DNA of 64,000 nt from a virus. The notes beneath the pieces were generated by a model, which worked only from the letters and a program-made list of their open reading frames with translations, had not been told where the DNA came from and did not search any database. The translations under genes were made by a program, and so were the position numbers. Positions 29,042-57,754 of the stretch are shown in pieces; position 1 is the first letter of the stretch, and every line of letters begins with the position of its first letter. The stretch covers positions 1 to 64,000 of the IMG/VR virus record IMGVR_UViG_3300027969_000063. One strand, given 5' to 3'.

Positions 29042-30883
29042 TTATTCTCCGTTTTTTTGCTTTTTTTTCTTCTTTAATAAATTATCTACACGAACTTTAT
29101 TATCAGCTGGTGTAACTAATGGTTCTTTATTTGTTGATCCGCCAAGAACTCCACCTACACCCATGTCACGGGCGCCTGGATCATCAATGGCCTCCGTTTT
29201 TATATTCTTTCTAAACTTCTTAAAATCTTTATTATCATAAGCACTACTCAATGGATTTACAGAACCACCAGAAGGCATTACTGTGGAAGCTGGACTTGCA
29301 TTACTGTAATCTATACTCTCACCTAATCCAGCACCACCAGTTAAACCACTACCATTGGTTCTTGTATTCCATTCTCCACCTAAACCTGATGGATCACTCG
29401 GTCTTGGATCAGATAATGTTCTGTTCTTCTTTACTTTTTCTTTGTCTTTGGAGAAGTTGCTTTCTTTGGGGCTTGGTCTCCAGCTGACTTTGGGCTGGCT
29501 TTCTTCGTAGGTGCGGAACGTGTAGCCGCCCGTTTTTTTGGTGCCGTCCCACTTGATGGTGTCACCGGCTGGATCGTTGGCTCGGTTGTCGGCTGGGATG
29601 TCGCTTGGTCGCTCTGCTCTTCCAACTTTGGTTTTCTGAATAAATCGATTAGTGCTTTTAACATTTTTTTCTTCCTTATATAAGTCAAAATTCATAACCA
29701 TTGGTTTATTATTTCTATGTAACCAATCATTAACGGTTTCATTTACCGATTTGCGATCCAAGAAGGATTCCGTCATTTGGTAAATTTCATGTATGTCACC
29801 ATCTTTACTATCTATGTCGCCTGTATTATCAAAGGAAACAAAATTTGTGAACATCTCATTGAAATATTTAGTGTTTTCTTGCGCTTTCAACCATTTATCT
29901 TGGCGTACAGATTCTACCATCATTCTAGACAATAGTGTGTTCCGTTCTTTACTGGCTTGATTGGTGGTATTGACAAACACCATTAGGGTTTCATAACCCA
30001 ATTCTTCTAGTTCTTCTCTTACATAAGAGAGTTTTTCTCTATCATCGGCAGGACCATTAATGATCAATGGACCACGATTACGAATGGCTTCTCTACGAAA
30101 ATCACTGGTTTTCTCTGATAACTTTTGTTTATCACCAAGGTAATCTCTGGCCTGTATCAGATTCAATTCAACGATACGAGCTTCAGCAATGGCTTCACGA
30201 ATGATAATATCTTTACCTGAACCAGGTCCACCAGTTACAAAGATTGCTTTAAAATGACCACGGGAAGTATCTTCATGTAGACCCATACCTTTACGAGTAT
30301 CATGCATTAATTCTTTTGAGTGCTTATCTGAAACATGAGAAGGAACACCCTTACGAAACTCTTTATGGTTGCCTGTGGAAGCGTGTTGGCGCATCTTAGT
30401 ACCAGACATACCTTCTGAACCTTCGGCATCCGGATCACGGTGACCAGCAGAATGTACAGTAATCTTTTTAAAGTTATACAAAGCACCTTTATGTGTACCA
30501 TTGTATTTGTTTAACTTTTCTTTCATTTCTTTAACACGGTCAGAACCAACAACCATATGTAAATGAGTTACACCGGATTTATGTAATTCGGTTGCATGGT
30601 GTAAAAATGTTGGATGTTCTTTAGAGGAAGTTTTGAAGTTTGTTCCTGGTGAATATCTTTGCAGGTGCTTCAATTTTTGTGCACCACTTAAAGGATTCTT
30701 TTTAGCGTCTTGTGAATGGGAAGCAACAACTGTGTGACCAGCATTGTGTTCTTTTGCTACCTCTTTTACTTTATCAATTAACTTTAAATGGCCGGTTGTG
30801 GGAGGATTCATGCGACCAAAGGTCATAACATGGTGGTTTTCACCTTGTTTGGTTTCTTCGACTAGTTCTAAGAATGATTTCAT
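29042..30883 (-). CDS. HxGH nucleotidyltransferase (cytidylyltransferase/NMNAT-like) fused to a P-loop kinase-like domain
   Basis: FGRMNPPTTGH, VGSDR, SGTKMR, then GGPGSGK. Confidence 0.8.
   Translation of the reverse strand: MKSFLELVEETKQGENHHVMTFGRMNPPTTGHLKLIDKVKEVAKEHNAGHTVVASHSQDAKKNPLSGAQKLKHLQRYSPGTNFKTSSKEHPTFLHHATELHKSGVTHLHMVVGSDRVKEMKEKLNKYNGTHKGALYNFKKITVHSAGHRDPDAEGSEGMSGTKMRQHASTGNHKEFRKGVPSHVSDKHSKELMHDTRKGMGLHEDTSRGHFKAIFVTGGPGSGKDIIIREAIAEARIVELNLIQARDYLGDKQKLSEKTSDFRREAIRNRGPLIINGPADDREKLSYVREELEELGYETLMVFVNTTNQASKERNTLLSRMMVESVRQDKWLKAQENTKYFNEMFTNFVSFDNTGDIDSKDGDIHEIYQMTESFLDRKSVNETVNDWLHRNNKPMVMNFDLYKEEKNVKSTNRFIQKTKVGRAERPSDIPADNRANDPAGDTIKWDGTKKTGGYTFRTYEESQPKVSWRPSPKESNFSKDKEKVKKNRTLSDPRPSDPSGLGGEWNTRTNGSGLTGGAGLGESIDYSNASPASTVMPSGGSVNPLSSAYDNKDFKKFRKNIKTEAIDDPGARDMGVGGVLGGSTNKEPLVTPADNKVRVDNLLKKKKKQKNGE
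29431..29664 (-). CDS. Overprinted K/A/P/T-rich basic protein, 77 aa
   Basis: Alternative frame; AAGGAAG RBS; local GC-rich patch. Confidence 0.5.
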   Translation of the reverse strand: MLKALIDLFRKPKLEEQSDQATSQPTTEPTIQPVTPSSGTAPKKRAATRSAPTKKASPKSAGDQAPKKATSPKTKKK

Positions 30884-32073
30884 TTACGAACTTTTAAAAG
30901 ATTCTGTTTAGCAAACTCAGCACGGTTAACCAATTTAGTTGGCTGATTATCGTGATGAACTACGAAACCTTCGGGTTTGGACTTCTTACCTTCAATGTGG
31001 TGTTGGTAGTGTCCTTCATGTGTTTCTAATGATTTAACTAAAGCATTTTTTGCTTGGTGTAAATGATGGTGCATTGAGAATAAGTTGCTATAATGTTCTT
31101 TGTGTTTTTCAACATGAGCAATTTGTTTTTTACCTTCGCCAGTTTTTTCAGCCTTAGATTTTTCAGTTGAAACTTTGGCAGCCAGCTTTTCGTGTATATT
31201 GTGTAAATGTTTTTTAAAACCCTCGACACTTGGCACTTCATCATGTCTTACAGTATGGTTTATGTATGTTGATAGGTGGCCATGTTCACCGCTATGTTTT
31301 GGATGAATTGCGTTATACATTTTGTGACCGTGAGTATCGTGAATTTCTTTTGCTGCAGCCATGTGTTTATGAAATTCTTTTTTGTTGGCTTCAGAATGTT
31401 GTACTTTACTGGTATCATGTTCTGCGCCATGAATATGGACATCCGGATGTTGTTTAAATTTACTCACATCTACATGAGGCGAAGCATGCTTCATGTCATC
31501 ACTATACTGGTGGTGAACCACTACACCAACTTTAGATTTTTTAATCTTTTTTGCCTCATCACCGTGAGCAGTATAGGTAATTGTGTTCGGTGTAAATGAT
31601 ACTTTACCTTCTTTAGCTTCTACGATGTAACCTTCATTTAACTTACCACTATCTTGGTGGTGCATTAAATCGCCTTGATAAACACCGTGTTTAGGTGTTA
31701 CTTTTGGTAAATGTTTAAGTGCGTGTTTGAGTGCTCTGGCTAAACCAGGAGCGTGACCGTGGTTTCTTTCAATATCTTTTTCTGTGTGATTAATCTTTGG
31801 ATTCTTGTTAAAGGCAGATTTGGTCGCCACAAAGAATTTACCATTCTTAGGATGATGGCCAAATACAATCGATGGAGAACCATCATACTTCATTGTCAGA
31901 TTTGTATTCTTGTGGCCGCCGGTCATGTGAGCATGGGCTTTCATTAGAGCTTCATGAGCATGTTCAAAACCAGCATGGCCGTGCATCAGAGGTCTATCTT
32001 CGGCATGATGGATATGCTTGAGTTCGGAACTTTTTTCCGTTTCTTCCGTTAGGAATGATCTAAATGATAACAT
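30880..32073 (-). CDS. His-rich protein with covalent nucleotidyltransferase (RNA-ligase-like) motifs, DUF6267-like
   Basis: KYDG, YQGD, EGFVV, TKLV; starts MLSFRSFLTEE. Confidence 0.7.
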   Translation of the reverse strand: MLSFRSFLTEETEKSSELKHIHHAEDRPLMHGHAGFEHAHEALMKAHAHMTGGHKNTNLTMKYDGSPSIVFGHHPKNGKFFVATKSAFNKNPKINHTEKDIERNHGHAPGLARALKHALKHLPKVTPKHGVYQGDLMHHQDSGKLNEGYIVEAKEGKVSFTPNTITYTAHGDEAKKIKKSKVGVVVHHQYSDDMKHASPHVDVSKFKQHPDVHIHGAEHDTSKVQHSEANKKEFHKHMAAAKEIHDTHGHKMYNAIHPKHSGEHGHLSTYINHTVRHDEVPSVEGFKKHLHNIHEKLAAKVSTEKSKAEKTGEGKKQIAHVEKHKEHYSNLFSMHHHLHQAKNALVKSLETHEGHYQHHIEGKKSKPEGFVVHHDNQPTKLVNRAEFAKQNLLKVRK

Positions 32074-32118
32074 TGAATTTCCTCTTGATTTGCAACACAC
32101 TTTGGTTGCCGATTTGCT

Positions 32119-38371: not shown

Positions 38372-39481
38372 TCACCTAATAATTTGAATGTCTTTACCTG
38401 AAGTCCAGATTTCGAGTTCTGTCCTTAATCTACCCTCGGTTCTAAGGGTTTCGTATCTATTTATAGCTTTACTCCGCCACCATTCAATAATATTGGCCAG
38501 TTCATGTTTGGCATAGTTTTCACCAGGTAAAAGAGTATCAGTTTTACAGTTCATGTAATCTACTGTATTTTTGAAACCATAGTCCGATGTATAATATCTT
38601 TTCTTCTCTGTCAACTTTTTGGCGTTCTCAATCGTTAGGTTGAAAGTGTCACCTTCAGTTGTTCCTTTTAGAGCGGCTTTGGTTAAGGCAATAATTTTGG
38701 TAAATGTTCTTAACTTTCTACTGGTCGTTGAAGTATCACCACCCAATAAATCTCCAGTAATGTTCTCAACATAATCTTTTAGGTCATGATATCTTTGGCC
38801 GTGCATCATGGGTACCATATCAGATTCGGTCAGACCTCTAAATCGAATATAAGGTTTCATACCATCGTATTGTGATACTGACTTTGTAGAACCATATAAA
38901 CTGGTGGTTTCAAATAGGCAAAGATTCATACCATATTTCTTATTACAGATTTCTCTTACTGTATGGCTGGTACAAATGGCCGATAGAAGTTTGCCACCTA
39001 GGTAATTAAAACCAAATGGTTGAGCTGGTACAATTACAAATCCCATAGCACAAGAAACATTGAATCGTTTGGCAGTATCTTCCTGTTGGATCCAGACCTG
39101 TCCTAAGAGTTCGTTTCTAGGTTTCATATAGATTACTGGTGAACCTAAACGAATGAATCCTAGAACCTTTCCTGAGTTCTTCTCTCTAACTGCCAACTGT
39201 ATATTCTTACCAACTGGAGATTTATTGATGTGTGAAGAGGTAATGGCAAGTAATGTTTCAAATTGAGTATTTGGTATTTCACACACCTCAATATCCATAT
39301 CATTTGGGTGCATGGAGAAATCAGAGAACAAATCATCTTCGGGTGGAAATAAAGAAGATGGCAATTCTGCCACCGACTTTAACTTCTCATCACGCATGTA
39401 TTCTTCGGTACTTCCAATGTTACTAAAATAATCATTGAACACCTTAGAACAATGTAAGGCTTGTTCTCTAGTTAGTATCAT
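38372..39481 (-). CDS. DUF4338/DruA-like protein, paralogue 1
   Basis: VPAQPFGFNYLGGKLL...TTSLYG...SQYDG. Confidence 0.7.
   Translation of the reverse strand: MILTREQALHCSKVFNDYFSNIGSTEEYMRDEKLKSVAELPSSLFPPEDDLFSDFSMHPNDMDIEVCEIPNTQFETLLAITSSHINKSPVGKNIQLAVREKNSGKVLGFIRLGSPVIYMKPRNELLGQVWIQQEDTAKRFNVSCAMGFVIVPAQPFGFNYLGGKLLSAICTSHTVREICNKKYGMNLCLFETTSLYGSTKSVSQYDGMKPYIRFRGLTESDMVPMMHGQRYHDLKDYVENITGDLLGGDTSTTSRKLRTFTKIIALTKAALKGTTEGDTFNLTIENAKKLTEKKRYYTSDYGFKNTVDYMNCKTDTLLPGENYAKHELANIIEWWRSKAINRYETLRTEGRLRTELEIWTSGKDIQIIR
38458..38465 (-). promoter_or_regulatory. Late promoter TATAAATA inside the 3' end of the DUF4338 gene
   Basis: Exact consensus about 90 nt upstream of the 38368 start. 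Confidence 0.55.
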
Positions 39482-46929: not shown

Positions 46930-47166
46930 TTAATAGATAAAAACAACTTCCGTAATGGGGATAACATAATCTTCATCGGCTACCTTAACCGCTTTATTCC
47001 AATTCACCAGTAACTCATCACCAATCTGTACTTCATCAACTTTAGGACCAAGAGCAACAACTTTTGCACGGTCTGGTGCTTCTGTGTACTTTAGAATGAT
47101 ACCTGATGCCGTCTGTTTCTCTGCGGCGATTCTTGTCACAATGATATTATTTTTTAATGGTTGCAT
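46930..47166 (-). CDS. groES: GroES-like co-chaperonin
   Basis: PL.N.I.V...E.QTASGIIL...VVALGP. Confidence 0.85.
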   Translation of the reverse strand: MQPLKNNIIVTRIAAEKQTASGIILKYTEAPDRAKVVALGPKVDEVQIGDELLVNWNKAVKVADEDYVIPITEVVFIY

Positions 47167-47324
47167 AATTTTCTTTCCGCAATAGCTCTTTGAATTTTGT
47201 TGATATGTTTTTTACGAGCACCTTCAAGTAGTTTCTCTAACTGTTCAATATTCAACGGACCTAATCTCTGTTTACCATTTTTGGTCAACATTGGATTTTT
47301 CTTTTTAGATTTTGCAACAGCCAT
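47154..47324 (-). CDS. 56-aa basic hypothetical protein (MAVAKSKKKNPMLTKNGK)
   Basis: Manual translation; AAGG RBS. Confidence 0.55.
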   Translation of the reverse strand: MAVAKSKKKNPMLTKNGKQRLGPLNIEQLEKLLEGARKKHINKIQRAIAERKLCNH

Positions 47325-47341
47325 AATATACCTTTTAAAAG

Positions 47342-47415
47342 TGGAGCGGGATATTGGAATCGAACCAATAACGAGAGGTTGGAAACCTCTAGTTTTACCA
47401 TTAAACTAATCCCGC
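47342..47415 (-). tRNA. tRNA-Gly(TCC)
   Basis: Cloverleaf with GCGGGAT/ATCCCGC acceptor stem, AGAGG-TTTCCAA-CCTCT anticodon arm, TTCGA T-loop and encoded CCA. Confidence 0.95.
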
Positions 47416-47416
47416 A

Positions 47417-47477
47417 TGGACTACATTAGCCACAGTTTCTATGTTTGCTACCGATAACTCGGTTCGTCTAATGCAGT
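47417..47477 (-). ncRNA. CCA-terminated three-way-junction RNA
   Basis: 10-bp terminal stem ACTGCATTAG/CTAATGTAGT + CCA; two internal hairpins. Confidence 0.55.
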
Positions 47478-47483
47478 TTAAAC

Positions 47484-47550
47484 TGGAGCGGTGGTCTGCT
47501 ATGCTCAGATAATATAAGAGGGTATCTCACATCGTACTATTACACACCGC
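47484..47550 (-). tRNA. Non-canonical tRNA-Gly-like RNA (possible ACC anticodon)
   Basis: GCGGTG/CACCGC-T-CCA acceptor; minimal D arm; T-loop lacks TTC. Confidence 0.65.
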
Positions 47551-47680
47551 ATATTACTTTTCTTTATCTTTTCTTGCCTTACCTTTTGCTTCAATTCTGG
47601 CAAGTAAATCTAATAATTCTTTTTTAGTTAACATTCTACCCCAAGAAGGAGTGTTATTTGCTTTTTCTGTCATATGTAAC

Positions 47681-47710
47681 ATGATATCATTACTTATACA
47701 TCATTGTCAA
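47681..47710 (-). promoter_or_regulatory. Possible promoters for the tRNA cluster (TTGACA-18-TATCAT; TATAAGTA at 47691-47698)
   Basis: Motifs seen in sequence. Confidence 0.45.
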
Positions 47711-47906: not shown

Positions 47907-48419
47907 TTATTGTGGGGGTTTCCAACCTAGAGATTCTGGAACAATCTGACTGTCCGGATCTTGAATGCCAAAGAATACTTCCCACAATTTCTCTTTTATT
48001 GCGAACTTACTAAACAAACCAACTTCTGTTCCAAATGCTTCTATTTCCCAAGGCTGAACCCAATAATCCATACTATCAGAATCAACCTTCTTTCCTTTCC
48101 AACGAGTTAATGTTTCGTTGGTTTCATTATAAGCATATTGCTTAATGTGTGTCATTTCGTGTGCCAAGGTTTTTAATATCTCAGCTGCACCAATTCCAGG
48201 ATGAAGTTCAATTTGAAACTCTCTCGCCTTACGACTTTCATTGTACTCTAAAATTTCAGCGTAACCATAGGCCTCAATCTTAGGATTAAATCTAATCCGT
48301 AGATAGATATTTTCTCTTAACTTTGGTGATATAAGTTGTTCAGCATAAAATACAGCAGCTCGTTTTACATACGGCCTGAAGTGCTTTTTATCGGGACAAC
48401 CAACTATACTTAGCTGCAT
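47907..48419 (-). CDS. Zinc metallopeptidase-like protein
   Basis: TLAHEMTHIKQ...PWEIEA. Confidence 0.8.
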   Translation of the reverse strand: MQLSIVGCPDKKHFRPYVKRAAVFYAEQLISPKLRENIYLRIRFNPKIEAYGYAEILEYNESRKAREFQIELHPGIGAAEILKTLAHEMTHIKQYAYNETNETLTRWKGKKVDSDSMDYWVQPWEIEAFGTEVGLFSKFAIKEKLWEVFFGIQDPDSQIVPESLGWKPPQ

Positions 48420-55919: not shown

Positions 55920-57179
55920 TTATCGACCAACTTGTGGTAAATATTTCGCTTTGGTATCTTCCCATGACAGGTAAATAAGGTCGTCATAGAAAAGAGTTTC
56001 GTAGGATACCGTATTCTTTTTCTGTAATTGCCGAATACGGCCTTTGGCATACTTTGTTTTCCAAATAGTTGCCAATGCTTGTTCACTGGTATCGAATGAT
56101 TTTACCAATGCCTCATCTGTAATTTCTTTACGGAGAAATTCATTGGTATTATTATAGAGCGGACTAAAATAGATACCACGTTGGTGTTCGGTACGAATCA
56201 ATTCTTTTGGTATACCAAGTTTAGAATAAGCAAAGTTCAATGAACGATTCTTATGATCACGCTTGAGTGGAAGTCCTTGTGTGTTCTTGGCTTCCCACCA
56301 TTCAAAATATTTACGAGTATGGTTTTCTTTAATCCAATCGAATACTAATTTTTTAGTCGATCTACTTGGTTCGAAAGCCACAGAACCAGAAGAAAAACCC
56401 ATAGGAGTCCAATGGTCAAGACCATCATACTGTGAGAGGCCTCCGGTTTTTGTTTTTCCATATAGTGATGTTGTAGTAACGCCGACAAGAGTGTCTCCAT
56501 ATTGCCTCTTCCAATCTGCTTGAACTGTATCAGATAAACACATCAATGCCAATAATTTACCACCCATGTAATTAAAACCAAGTGGTTGTAACGGAACGAT
56601 GGTGGATCCAATCGCTGTATGATTAATCATATGTTGTTGTGTCTTAACATCTCTCGACCATCCGATTGCATTATCTCTCGGAGTCAAGTCCAGGAAGTCT
56701 GAGGAGATACAAATAACACCAAGGTATTTACCTGTTACTTCATCTGTCAAAACATAGAATAAATTACGACCAATGTTGGAATTGTTTTTCATTGTGGATG
56801 AAAATGTACGAATGGCATTCCACTTTTCGGCATCAGGACCATTTGAAAGAACCATAACAGGTTTCAATTTCTCATAATCATCAGGTTGTGTTGGCATCCA
56901 GAAATTTGATTTCATTTTATCAACCAATTTCTTTTGTTCAGGATCAACCATCTGTGTTTCTTGGCCAAACAATGTAGATACTTCTTGAACTGGATATCTC
57001 TCTTTTACTTCACACCACTTTTGATATAAGGTATATTCACGAACATCCATTTGAGAAGCATAAGTTAAGTCCTTGATGAGGACTTCTTTCATGTTACCTT
57101 CATCGATGTGTTCAAAGATAGTGTTCTTTTCAGACCACTCTTTCCATTGTTTTTCTACATACTCAATTGGTGTTGCCAT
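55920..57179 (-). CDS. DUF4338/DruA-like protein, paralogue 2
   Basis: VPLQPLGFNYMGGKLL...TTSLYG...SQYDG. Confidence 0.7.
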   Translation of the reverse strand: MATPIEYVEKQWKEWSEKNTIFEHIDEGNMKEVLIKDLTYASQMDVREYTLYQKWCEVKERYPVQEVSTLFGQETQMVDPEQKKLVDKMKSNFWMPTQPDDYEKLKPVMVLSNGPDAEKWNAIRTFSSTMKNNSNIGRNLFYVLTDEVTGKYLGVICISSDFLDLTPRDNAIGWSRDVKTQQHMINHTAIGSTIVPLQPLGFNYMGGKLLALMCLSDTVQADWKRQYGDTLVGVTTTSLYGKTKTGGLSQYDGLDHWTPMGFSSGSVAFEPSRSTKKLVFDWIKENHTRKYFEWWEAKNTQGLPLKRDHKNRSLNFAYSKLGIPKELIRTEHQRGIYFSPLYNNTNEFLRKEITDEALVKSFDTSEQALATIWKTKYAKGRIRQLQKKNTVSYETLFYDDLIYLSWEDTKAKYLPQVGR

Positions 57180-57754
57180 TATCGTATTCTCAAACCATTC
57201 ATAATTTTATTACGCTTCTTGATACCTTGTTGTAATGCCAAAGGTTTTACTTTACTAGTATACACTATTCCATTCATGTGGTCAAGCTCATGTTGGAAAC
57301 AACGAGCAGATATACCAGAGAATGTAGTTTGTTGCCATTCACCTTTAAAGTCTTGGTATGTTACCGCAACTTCTTCTGGTCTTGTAATTCTTAATGCCAG
57401 AAAAGGATAAGAAAGGCAACCTTCCACCATGTGAACTTCCGTTTTAGAATTCAATACAATACTAGGATTGAAAAATGCCACATAATGATCACCTGAACCC
57501 ATCACAAACATTCTATATGGAAATCCACATTGATTGGCTGAAAGTCCTACACCACGATGTAGTTTACAGGTTTCTACCATCGATGATGCAAACTCAACTG
57601 GATCAACCGGTGGATTTTTAAAATCAAATTCCGGCATTACTTCACGGAGAATTGGATGTTGTTCTGATACCAACTCAAAGGTTTTAAATTGTTCAATGGG
57701 AGTATTCGGTTGTATTAACGAATCTTCTGTATTAATTTTAATTACATCACTCAT
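57179..57754 (-). CDS. def: Peptide deformylase
   Basis: GVGLSANQ, EGCLS, QHELDH. Confidence 0.95.
   Translation of the reverse strand: MSDVIKINTEDSLIQPNTPIEQFKTFELVSEQHPILREVMPEFDFKNPPVDPVEFASSMVETCKLHRGVGLSANQCGFPYRMFVMGSGDHYVAFFNPSIVLNSKTEVHMVEGCLSYPFLALRITRPEEVAVTYQDFKGEWQQTTFSGISARCFQHELDHMNGIVYTSKVKPLALQQGIKKRNKIMNGLRIR

Follow-up and report, generated by a model that had tools for sequence, protein, structure and literature searches.

The virus record IMGVR_UViG_3300027969_000063 of IMG/VR, 105.5 kb long, poses a question at one locus within its first 64,000 nucleotides (nt), the stretch analysed here and called the window below: what is the 67-nt tRNA-like element just upstream of tRNA-Gly(UCC), the sole canonical tRNA that ARAGORN finds in the whole record, and does it take part in decoding? 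We find that this element, which we call the mini RNA, is a genuine RNA gene of tRNA-Gly descent, and we regard as evenly balanced the proposal, made from its sequence, that it is a non-decoding glycine carrier chargeable by glycyl-tRNA synthetase (GlyRS). The locus had been singled out in an original prediction made from the DNA letters alone. The sequence quoted there lies at 47550 to 47484 on the minus strand and reads GCGGUGUGUAAUAGUACGAUGUGAGAUACCCUCUUAUAUUAUCUGAGCAUAGCAGACCACCGCUCCA; its position, its acceptor stem, the CC of the anticodon, U73, CCA, and the lack of GG in the D loop and of TTC in the T loop are all borne out as quoted, and the canonical tRNA-Gly(TCC) said to lie about 70 nt away is found 68 nt downstream. 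The parts of the RNA and the neighbouring tRNA are as follows.

47484..47550, minus strand: mini tRNA-Gly-like RNA of class A, 67 nt (identified by its sequence, a minimum free energy cloverleaf, covariation, and a score of 95.4 bits with our covariance model R1)
47550-47545, minus strand: acceptor 5' strand, RNA positions 1-6
47543-47534, minus strand: D arm, RNA positions 8-17
47532-47512, minus strand: stem of 8 base pairs (bp) with pentaloop, RNA positions 19-39, including the invariant CC at 47522-47521
47509-47495, minus strand: T-like arm, RNA positions 42-56
47493-47488, minus strand: acceptor 3' strand, RNA positions 58-63
47487, minus strand: equivalent of U73, followed by CCA at 47486-47484
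47342..47415, minus strand: canonical tRNA-Gly(UCC) (ARAGORN; Rfam tRNA model, 68.6 bits)

The minimum free energy fold of the 67-mer is a cloverleaf (-18.1 kcal/mol, z = -2.2). To see which parts of it are maintained, we aligned 59 distinct homologues with MAFFT (alignment A4, 65-100% pairwise identity). The homologues came from loci found through a neighbouring protein (21 sequences, unconstrained in the RNA) and from a degenerate pattern that left the 3' half of the RNA unconstrained; this pattern matched at least 117 IMG/VR contigs, and both the 59 homologues and the counts of genomic contexts given below are drawn partly from those contigs, among the matches listed. The acceptor stem of the window copy is GCGGUG/CACCGC, followed by U and then CCA, and in the family it consists of 6 bp and a seventh pair that is mismatched in most members (U.C in 32 of 59). 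The D stem has 3 bp and closes a 4-nt loop, AUAG, in all 59 sequences, with no GG. The T-like stem has 4 bp, and its loop is AGCAWAG or UGCAAAG in all 59 (AGCAUAG in the window copy), with no TTC. The variable region is 1-2 nt long, and at the elbow there is merely a possible G-C pair (G14, C48) remaining.

The fold is supported by the alignment throughout. Standard pairs fill 98.9% of the 1239 pair cells, and double (compensatory) changes occur in 12 of the 21 pairs, with at least one in each of the four helices. In 500 shuffles, neither the pairing nor the covariation seen in the alignment was ever reached, slid partners pair only 25-61% of the time, and the conservation has sharp edges, running from G1 to CCA between unrelated flanks. 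The 67-mer is thus a real RNA gene whose fold has been kept by compensatory evolution. The original prediction had argued from the pairing of all arms against random decay and had proposed covariation and conservation among related phages as a check, and on both counts the alignment decides the matter in its favour. Its reading of the tRNA anatomy held for the cloverleaf and failed for the anticodon arm. What had been taken for loop positions 32 and 38 is a Watson-Crick pair that covaries (A-U in 49 sequences, G-C in 10, unpaired in none of the 59), and since these two nucleotides are always paired, the anticodon-like arm is an 8-bp stem with a 5-nt loop and not a 7-bp stem with a 7-nt loop. 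The pentaloop is Y-N-C-C-C in 57 of the homologues and Y-N-C-C-A in two, with a 4-nt loop in two sequences.

We then considered what has been kept from a tRNA and which tRNA that was. G1-C72, C2-G71, G3-C70, G4-C69, G6-C67, U73, CCA, C35 and C36 occur without exception in the 59 sequences. The bacterial glycine identity set consists of U73, G1-C72, C2-G71, C35 and C36 (PMC9976931), so that the GlyRS identity which the original prediction saw as retained coincides with nucleotides that do not vary. The mini RNA and the adjoining canonical tRNA-Gly have the GCGG...CCGC-U-CCA end in common, and the weak extra matches of model R1 in our loci were limited to adjacent tRNA-Gly genes and to the sister classes described below. 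When R1 was run with filters off on the T4 tRNA region, which contains eight tRNAs, T4 tRNA-Gly was the sole match (14.5 bits). The mini RNA descends from tRNA-Gly.

The nucleotides and features that serve decoding present a different picture, and here too the earlier claim that translation features are missing stands. G18G19 and T54-Psi55-C56 are absent from all 59 sequences. C occupies position 37 in 57 of 59 homologues and position 33 in 10 of 59; the anticodon-like stem is 7-8 bp long and the acceptor/T stack 10-11 bp. Position 34 is free, being A in 43 homologues, U in 13 and G in one, and it switches among close relatives; the U34 variants lie 1-6 nt upstream of a canonical tRNA-Gly(UCC). 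Because the identity set is constant while the features used by EF-Tu and the ribosome are lost or free, the mini RNA is probably glycylated and non-decoding. Under this proposal, selection would fix the nucleotides read by GlyRS (G1-C72, C2-G71, G3-C70, U73, C35, C36 and the encoded CCA), and what EF-Tu and the ribosome need would be lost or left to vary. From its identity set, the RNA should be glycylated by the host GlyRS, and from its altered T stem and loops we infer that EF-Tu and the ribosome bind it weakly. Staying outside ordinary decoding, it would give the phage a private pool of activated glycine, making it a virus-encoded counterpart of non-proteinogenic tRNA-Gly.

Several related RNA forms help to place the mini RNA, and we refer to the 67-nt family as class A to distinguish it from them. 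They are introduced together with a protein of the window whose orthologues recur beside them.

L058:3559-3628, with about 20 further loci (L042, L044, L048, L053-L066, L072-L079): class B RNA
KC465899.1 91140-91213 (L241:1501-1574): unannotated 74-nt tRNA-Gly(ACC)-like gene of Pelagibacter phage HTVC008M
MT647606.1 7779-7852 (L242), minus strand: unannotated 74-nt tRNA-Gly(ACC)-like gene of Pelagibacter phage Mosig
55920..57179 of the window, minus strand: DUF4338/DruA-family protein of 419 amino acids (aa), here called DruA2-like (PF14236)

Class B RNAs are 70 nt long (13 distinct sequences, 95% paired) and have the form GCGGUCGGGGUAUAGAACC...UGUCCAA...UGCGAAU...CCACCGCUCCA. Their acceptor/T stack is 7/5, its pair 6:67 being a conserved Y.C mismatch, and they have a 3-bp D stem, a 7-bp stem closing the loop UGUCCAA (with G33), and a T loop, UGCGAAU, of UGC type. 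They are found about 55 nt past an SprT-like gene and occupy the genomic slot of class A in phages whose DruA2-like protein is 74-93% identical to that of the window; in some phages classes A and B stand in tandem. Class D RNAs are 65-67 nt long, with loops of CUCCAA or just CCC, in a lineage whose DruA2 orthologue is 58-59% identical. We also noticed a third pseudo-tRNA form of 68 nt, GCGAGG...UGUCCAA...CUCGCUCCA, 3 nt past a class A RNA (L128:4696-4763, also in L161, L178 and L130). The HTVC008M and Mosig genes have the same GCGG...CCGC-U-CCA acceptor end, a D loop without GG and T loops of AGCGUUA and GGCAGUA (no UUC), together with canonical stem lengths and a 7-nt anticodon loop, UUACCAA, with A37. 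ARAGORN calls the HTVC008M copy tRNA-Gly(ACC), and model R1 does not detect either of these 74-nt genes. The glycine identity set is present in class B, class D and the pelagiphage forms alike. The pelagiphage genes share with the mini RNA the acceptor end, the ACC loop, the aberrant D and T loops and a nearby DruA2 orthologue, and differ in their length, canonical stems and 7-nt loop with A37; they probably represent a less reduced state of the mini-RNA lineage. The HTVC008M gene lies 14 nt upstream of a gene for ribosomal protein S21.

The mini RNA might instead be a working, miniaturised elongator tRNA-Gly whose ACC loop reads GGU and complements the adjoining tRNA-Gly(UCC). We consider this rather unlikely, although some of the data that favour it count directly against a non-decoding carrier: 68.8% of Gly codons in the 105-kb record are GGU, the commonest loop, with the majority A34, reads ACC, and in the pelagiphage versions the anticodon arm is canonical throughout, with a 5-bp stem and the loop UUACCAA. 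A further point against the carrier is that invariance is shared equally by the identity set and by the D loop, T loop and core nucleotides, so that conservation by itself does not point to GlyRS in particular. The compact core of an elongator would resemble that of tRNA-Pyl or mitochondrial tRNA-Ser(UCN), and tRNAs that lack GG and T-Psi-C and have longer anticodon stems, such as tRNA-Pyl, do decode; moreover, the gene often lies within tRNA clusters or 1-8 nt upstream of tRNA-Gly. Decoding is difficult to reconcile, however, with the nearly constant C37, the occasional C33, a 32:38 pair that is always Watson-Crick, a stem of 7-8 bp, loops of 4 or 3 nt in some members, and an acceptor/T stack of 10-11 bp rather than 12. 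Nor would an elongator be expected to switch between A, U and G at position 34 and to carry U34 beside a canonical UCC tRNA, to be kept apart from the tRNA cluster in a phage with 33 tRNAs that include Gly-GCC and Gly-UCC, or to be replaced by class B, with G33, in the same slot of closely related phages, whose DruA2-like protein is 93% identical.

Other explanations set decoding aside. An abundant early RNA that presents the acceptor end of tRNA-Gly (U73 with G71, and CCA), whether charged or not, could act as a decoy or sponge, absorbing host toxins that act on tRNA-Gly or Gly-tRNA-Gly (GNATs of the TacT/AtaT2 type, or modifiers of the CCA end) and so sparing the translating pool. The invariant acceptor end and the predicted early promoter of consensus type would suit this role, the specificity of TacT rests on U73 and G71 (PMC9976931), phage tRNAs are reported to counter tRNA-targeting defences (PMC11555353), and a non-decoding body would render a modified decoy harmless. 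Yet invariant C35 and C36 would serve no purpose in a decoy for the acceptor end, competing substrates do little to neutralise catalytic toxins, and no such toxin is known for the host; we judge the decoy improbable. We rate slightly lower again an uncharged structural or regulatory mimic of a tRNA, whether as a mark for RNase P or other processing of an early operon, as a titrator of GlyRS or as a mimic of uncharged tRNA-Gly on a sensor. In most contexts the RNA does come first in an operon, before tRNA-Gly or a small open reading frame (ORF), and the T4 tRNA cluster too contains stable non-tRNA RNAs of unknown role, rnaC and rnaD. There is no constant downstream partner, however, since a tRNA, an ORF or a terminator may follow, a processing signal would not need invariant C35, C36 and U73, and where the promoter is adjacent the leader is about 1-3 nt, leaving little for RNase P to remove. 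That the tRNA finder and Rfam miss the RNA could suggest a decaying tRNA-Gly pseudogene or a chance cluster of hairpins, to which we assign next to no probability: covariation in every helix (n = 59), sharp edges, an own promoter and single-copy occurrence rule this out. Two narrower readings were dropped on particular grounds, an anti-Shine-Dalgarno-like role of the loop (CCCUC) because the 3' strand covaries freely, and a T-box mimic in view of the free position 34 and the non-canonical elbow.

The glycine carrier proposed here has partial parallels among described RNAs, of which the staphylococcal one was raised in the original prediction. Non-proteogenic (NP) tRNA-Gly of staphylococci (NP1-NP3; Ia/Ib in S. 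epidermidis) feed FmhB, FemA and FemB and are thought to be kept from translation (PMC7826273). Like the mini RNA, they are extra tRNA-Gly that keep GlyRS recognition and have lost the D-loop GG and the T-loop UUC. Their T loop is of the UGC kind, compared with UGCGAAU in class B and AGCAWAG in class A. They are, however, cellular, restricted to staphylococci and full-size, with a 7/5 cloverleaf and a normal UCC loop, whereas the mini RNA and its sister forms are viral and 65-70 nt long, with a pentaloop in the mini RNA. The parallel is apt as an analogy, most visibly in the UGC-type T loop of class B, but does not extend to the transferases, as no Fem or MprF gene was found in five phage genomes (described below). 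On this comparison of features, the mini RNA is an analogue and not a member of the staphylococcal group.

The tRNA-Other of Bacillus cereus, which is Lys-related in identity, is likewise a non-translational tRNA-like gene, but is cellular, of normal size and unrelated in sequence. It has been described as a pseudo-tRNA outside translation with a physiological role (PMC3399842). The species 1 and 2 RNAs of T4 (rnaC, rnaD) resemble the mini RNA as small stable non-tRNA RNAs with tRNA-like parts in a T4-type tRNA cluster; they differ in being 119-139 nt long and not cloverleaves of this type, and kinship was rejected, as R1 matched neither rnaC nor rnaD in the T4 tRNA region. In tRNA-Pyl and mitochondrial tRNA-Ser(UCN), 1 nt separates the acceptor stem from the D stem, the D loop is small and lacks GG, the T loop lacks T-Psi-C, the anticodon stem is lengthened and the variable region is short; these tRNAs decode, with a 7-nt loop having U33 and a purine at 37 and with a 12-bp acceptor/T stack. 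The compact core is thus alike, while loop size, positions 33 and 37 and stack length differ from the mini RNA. PMC7609411 lists tRNA-Pyl and mammalian mitochondrial tRNA-Ser(UCN) among compact-core tRNAs. Taken as a whole, the family is best filed as a viral, miniaturised variant of the non-proteinogenic or pseudo-tRNA kind; it is not in Rfam, and we found no description of it in the literature searched.

If the mini RNA carries glycine, some enzyme should receive it, and the DruA2-like protein is our tentative candidate, on the grounds of its modelled fold and its gene neighbourhood. In 18 of 99 distinct contexts its gene precedes class A by 23-65 nt, and in others by 5.5-7.4 kb; all 8 class D loci have it 37-44 nt upstream of the RNA. 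Among 50,697 GenBank phage records, full-length DruA2-like orthologues (56-58% identical) were found in HTVC008M and Mosig only, and in both phages the orthologue is followed within a few kb by the non-canonical tRNA-Gly(ACC)-like gene. The AlphaFold2 (AF2) model, made with a 43-sequence alignment, has a GNAT core (predicted local distance difference test, pLDDT, 93.6) surrounded by extra N- and C-terminal helical parts, and a three-helix insert at 273-320 before the last strand. In an unbiased structural search of 48,161 PDB representatives, Mom of phage Mu came first (Z 9.9, root-mean-square deviation 4.1 A, 172 of 202 residues aligned), followed by ordinary GNAT acetyltransferases (Z up to 9.4, about 145 residues aligned), with FemA at Z 8.0. 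The top matches of the model in Foldseek and in the structural search are all GNATs, although Foldseek alone is weak (E of 0.014 or more).

Phage Mu Mom moves glycine from Gly-tRNA-Gly to adenine N6 in double-stranded DNA and probably reads the acceptor end (PMC13219725). It has a helix-turn-helix-like insertion and the catalytic residues R111, S124, D149 and R151. The likeness to our system is that of a phage GNAT fold that uses Gly-tRNA-Gly and is the top structural match of the DruA2-like protein; the difference is that Mom accepts any host tRNA-Gly isoacceptor and has no dedicated RNA, while the DruA2-like protein, at 419 aa, has no sequence kinship with it. Glycine might then pass from the mini RNA to the DruA2-like protein and onward to phage DNA as an anti-restriction modification. 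Alternatively, the acceptor could be protein N-termini, a possibility suggested by a gene for peptide deformylase, translationally coupled to the DruA2-like gene by an overlap of its stop with that gene's start.

57179..57754, minus strand: peptide deformylase (PF01327, E = 7.7e-37)

The same pairing of genes is found in the complete genome G004 and in phage Mosig. The fuller proposal, that the mini RNA is a dedicated donor for aminoacyl-tRNA-dependent GNATs of the DUF4338/DruA family that glycylate phage DNA in the manner of Mom, or proteins, seems to us possible but doubtful.

A number of observations weigh against this pairing or against a glycine carrier in general. The DruA2-like protein does not match the Mom family PF25680, PF14236 being the only family given by a Pfam scan, and hhalign comparisons with Mu Mom or with a 25-sequence Mom profile gave probabilities below 1% (0.07% with the profile); likewise, phmmer against the PDB gave no sequence link. 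The Z of Mom is within 1 of that of ordinary acetyltransferases. In the window, the GNAT gene is 8.4 kb from the RNA, and an SprT-like gene is an equally frequent immediate neighbour, lying within 64 nt of class A in 23 of the 99 contexts compared with 18 for the DruA2-like gene. As one syntenic replication module holds all these genes, their linkage may reflect ancestry. Remote DruA-like genes (the P0174 lineage, 28% identity) have no mini RNA within 3 kb. Fem-family (PF02388, PF13480) and MprF-type (PF09924) domains gave no match in the phage genomes G000-G004, four of them complete, in searches confined to these five genomes, while control genomes did match; such an enzyme might be host-encoded. 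Separately from these points, the window encodes a second, divergent DUF4338/DruA paralogue at 38372-39481 on the minus strand, both paralogues being in the replication module, and one GenBank cyanophage homologue of the DruA-type protein is annotated as 'methylcarbamoylase mom' (PQ898602).

The usual reading of phage tRNA genes is that they help with codon usage or replace tRNAs cut by host defences; the mini RNA, by comparison, is a widespread and strongly conserved phage RNA seemingly built for glycine charging and not for decoding. If it is charged, the concept of non-proteinogenic tRNA would extend from staphylococcal cell-wall synthesis to viruses, and, with the precedent of Mom, tRNA-dependent glycyl transfer would appear as a broader phage strategy. 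If the DruA2-like protein is indeed its partner, the two would be the first viral pair of donor RNA and transferase of this kind, the DruA of the Druantia defence system would perhaps be a tRNA-dependent modifier, and the DUF4338/DruA family would gain a testable function. The family also indicates that a tRNA body can shrink to 65-68 nt, with an 8-bp stem and a pentaloop, and retain an aminoacylation identity set, which is useful for the study of tRNA recognition and for orthogonal carriers.

The surroundings of the mini RNA differ somewhat between this record and its relatives, as seen from the following features of the window.

47681..47710, minus strand: sigma-70-type promoter (TTGACA, 18 nt, TATCAT, with a TG extension)
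47554..47673, minus strand: 39-codon ORF between promoter and RNA
47416..47483, minus strand: 68-nt spacer between the mini RNA and tRNA-Gly
47154..47324, minus strand: conserved basic ORF of 56 aa, without family match
47907..48419, minus strand: SprT-like HExxH protein of 170 aa, falling in viral 'SprT-like' clusters

In 63 of 95 distinct contexts, a promoter of the form TTGnnn-N16-18-TAnnnT, usually TTGACA-17-TATAGT and often with a TG extension, precedes the RNA with its -10 element ending 8-9 nt before G1, so that the leader of the primary transcript should be at most a few nt. By comparison of upstream flanks, the promoter at 47681-47710 matches the one that directly precedes the RNA in most relatives, and in the window the 39-codon ORF has come to lie between them, with an ATG 7 nt past the -10 element and a stop 3 nt before G1 of the RNA. 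The ORF as annotated (47554-47682) has its first ATG within the -10 element; the true start is probably the in-frame ATG 7 nt past it, giving a leaderless 39-aa product. A small ORF in the same place is also found in L002, L007, L015 and L026. Downstream, the RNA is followed by tRNA-Gly(UCC) after 1-8 nt in 27 contexts, by tRNA-Gly(GCC) after 7 nt in one, and by a small ORF with its own Shine-Dalgarno sequence in 45; in G004, a 13-bp terminator lies 7 nt past the CCA. The mini RNA of G004 is at 7.9 kb, 74 kb from the cluster of 33 tRNAs (including Gly-UCC and Gly-GCC) mentioned above. Judged by these elements, the mini RNA is an independent small-RNA gene, normally with its own predicted sigma-70-type early promoter. 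G004 itself (168.9 kb, L208-L216) has its tRNA cluster at 81995-89953 and a transfer-messenger RNA gene at 104907-105277 with the tag ANDEKFRIAA.

The 68-nt spacer is specific to this lineage, the distance being 1-8 nt in the relatives examined and 5 nt in one contig of run X17. Within it are a 10-bp terminal stem and an inner CCGA-GUUA-UCGG hairpin, and its end, 1 nt before tRNA-Gly, is CCA. The 56-aa ORF begins 19-51 nt past the CCA of the RNA in many relatives and is without similarity to the S21 gene that follows the HTVC008M RNA. The SprT-like gene directly precedes class A and class B RNAs more often than any other gene.

The standard tools tried here do not recognise the mini RNA. ARAGORN did not call the mini RNA in standard, relaxed or mitochondrial modes, and with relaxed or mitochondrial settings it recognised none of classes A, B and D; a 2-kb search with Rfam, including RF00005, at E up to 10 had the canonical tRNA as its sole match. 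The mini forms are thus invisible to ARAGORN and, on this window, to the Rfam tRNA model, and the HTVC008M copy has gone unannotated. A blastn search of the 700-nt region against GenBank phages returned canonical tRNA-Gly genes only, and the pattern defining class A had no matches in 185,579 bacterial and archaeal genomes, one per species. Model R1, by comparison, finds exactly one copy in this record and in each of four complete relatives of 162-236 kb. Among Logan contigs from RNA runs, one 151-nt metatranscriptome contig of depth 2 spans 47511-47661, too weak for a statement about expression, and the other RNA runs covered the canonical tRNA only.

As for the phage itself, all genes of the window are on one strand, and the G+C content is about 36%. 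The window contains a T4-like gene set, including DNA polymerase, a GroES-like protein, Hsp20 and clamp and clamp-loader genes, and the nearest cultured relatives of the polymerase are from Synechococcus myoviruses, at about 50% identity. The sequencing runs that contain this DNA are freshwater, lake or river metagenomes. Elsewhere in the window, at 29042-32100 on the minus strand, a gene for a DUF6267 protein of 406 aa overlaps that of a cytidylyltransferase-like protein of 613 aa (Pfam).

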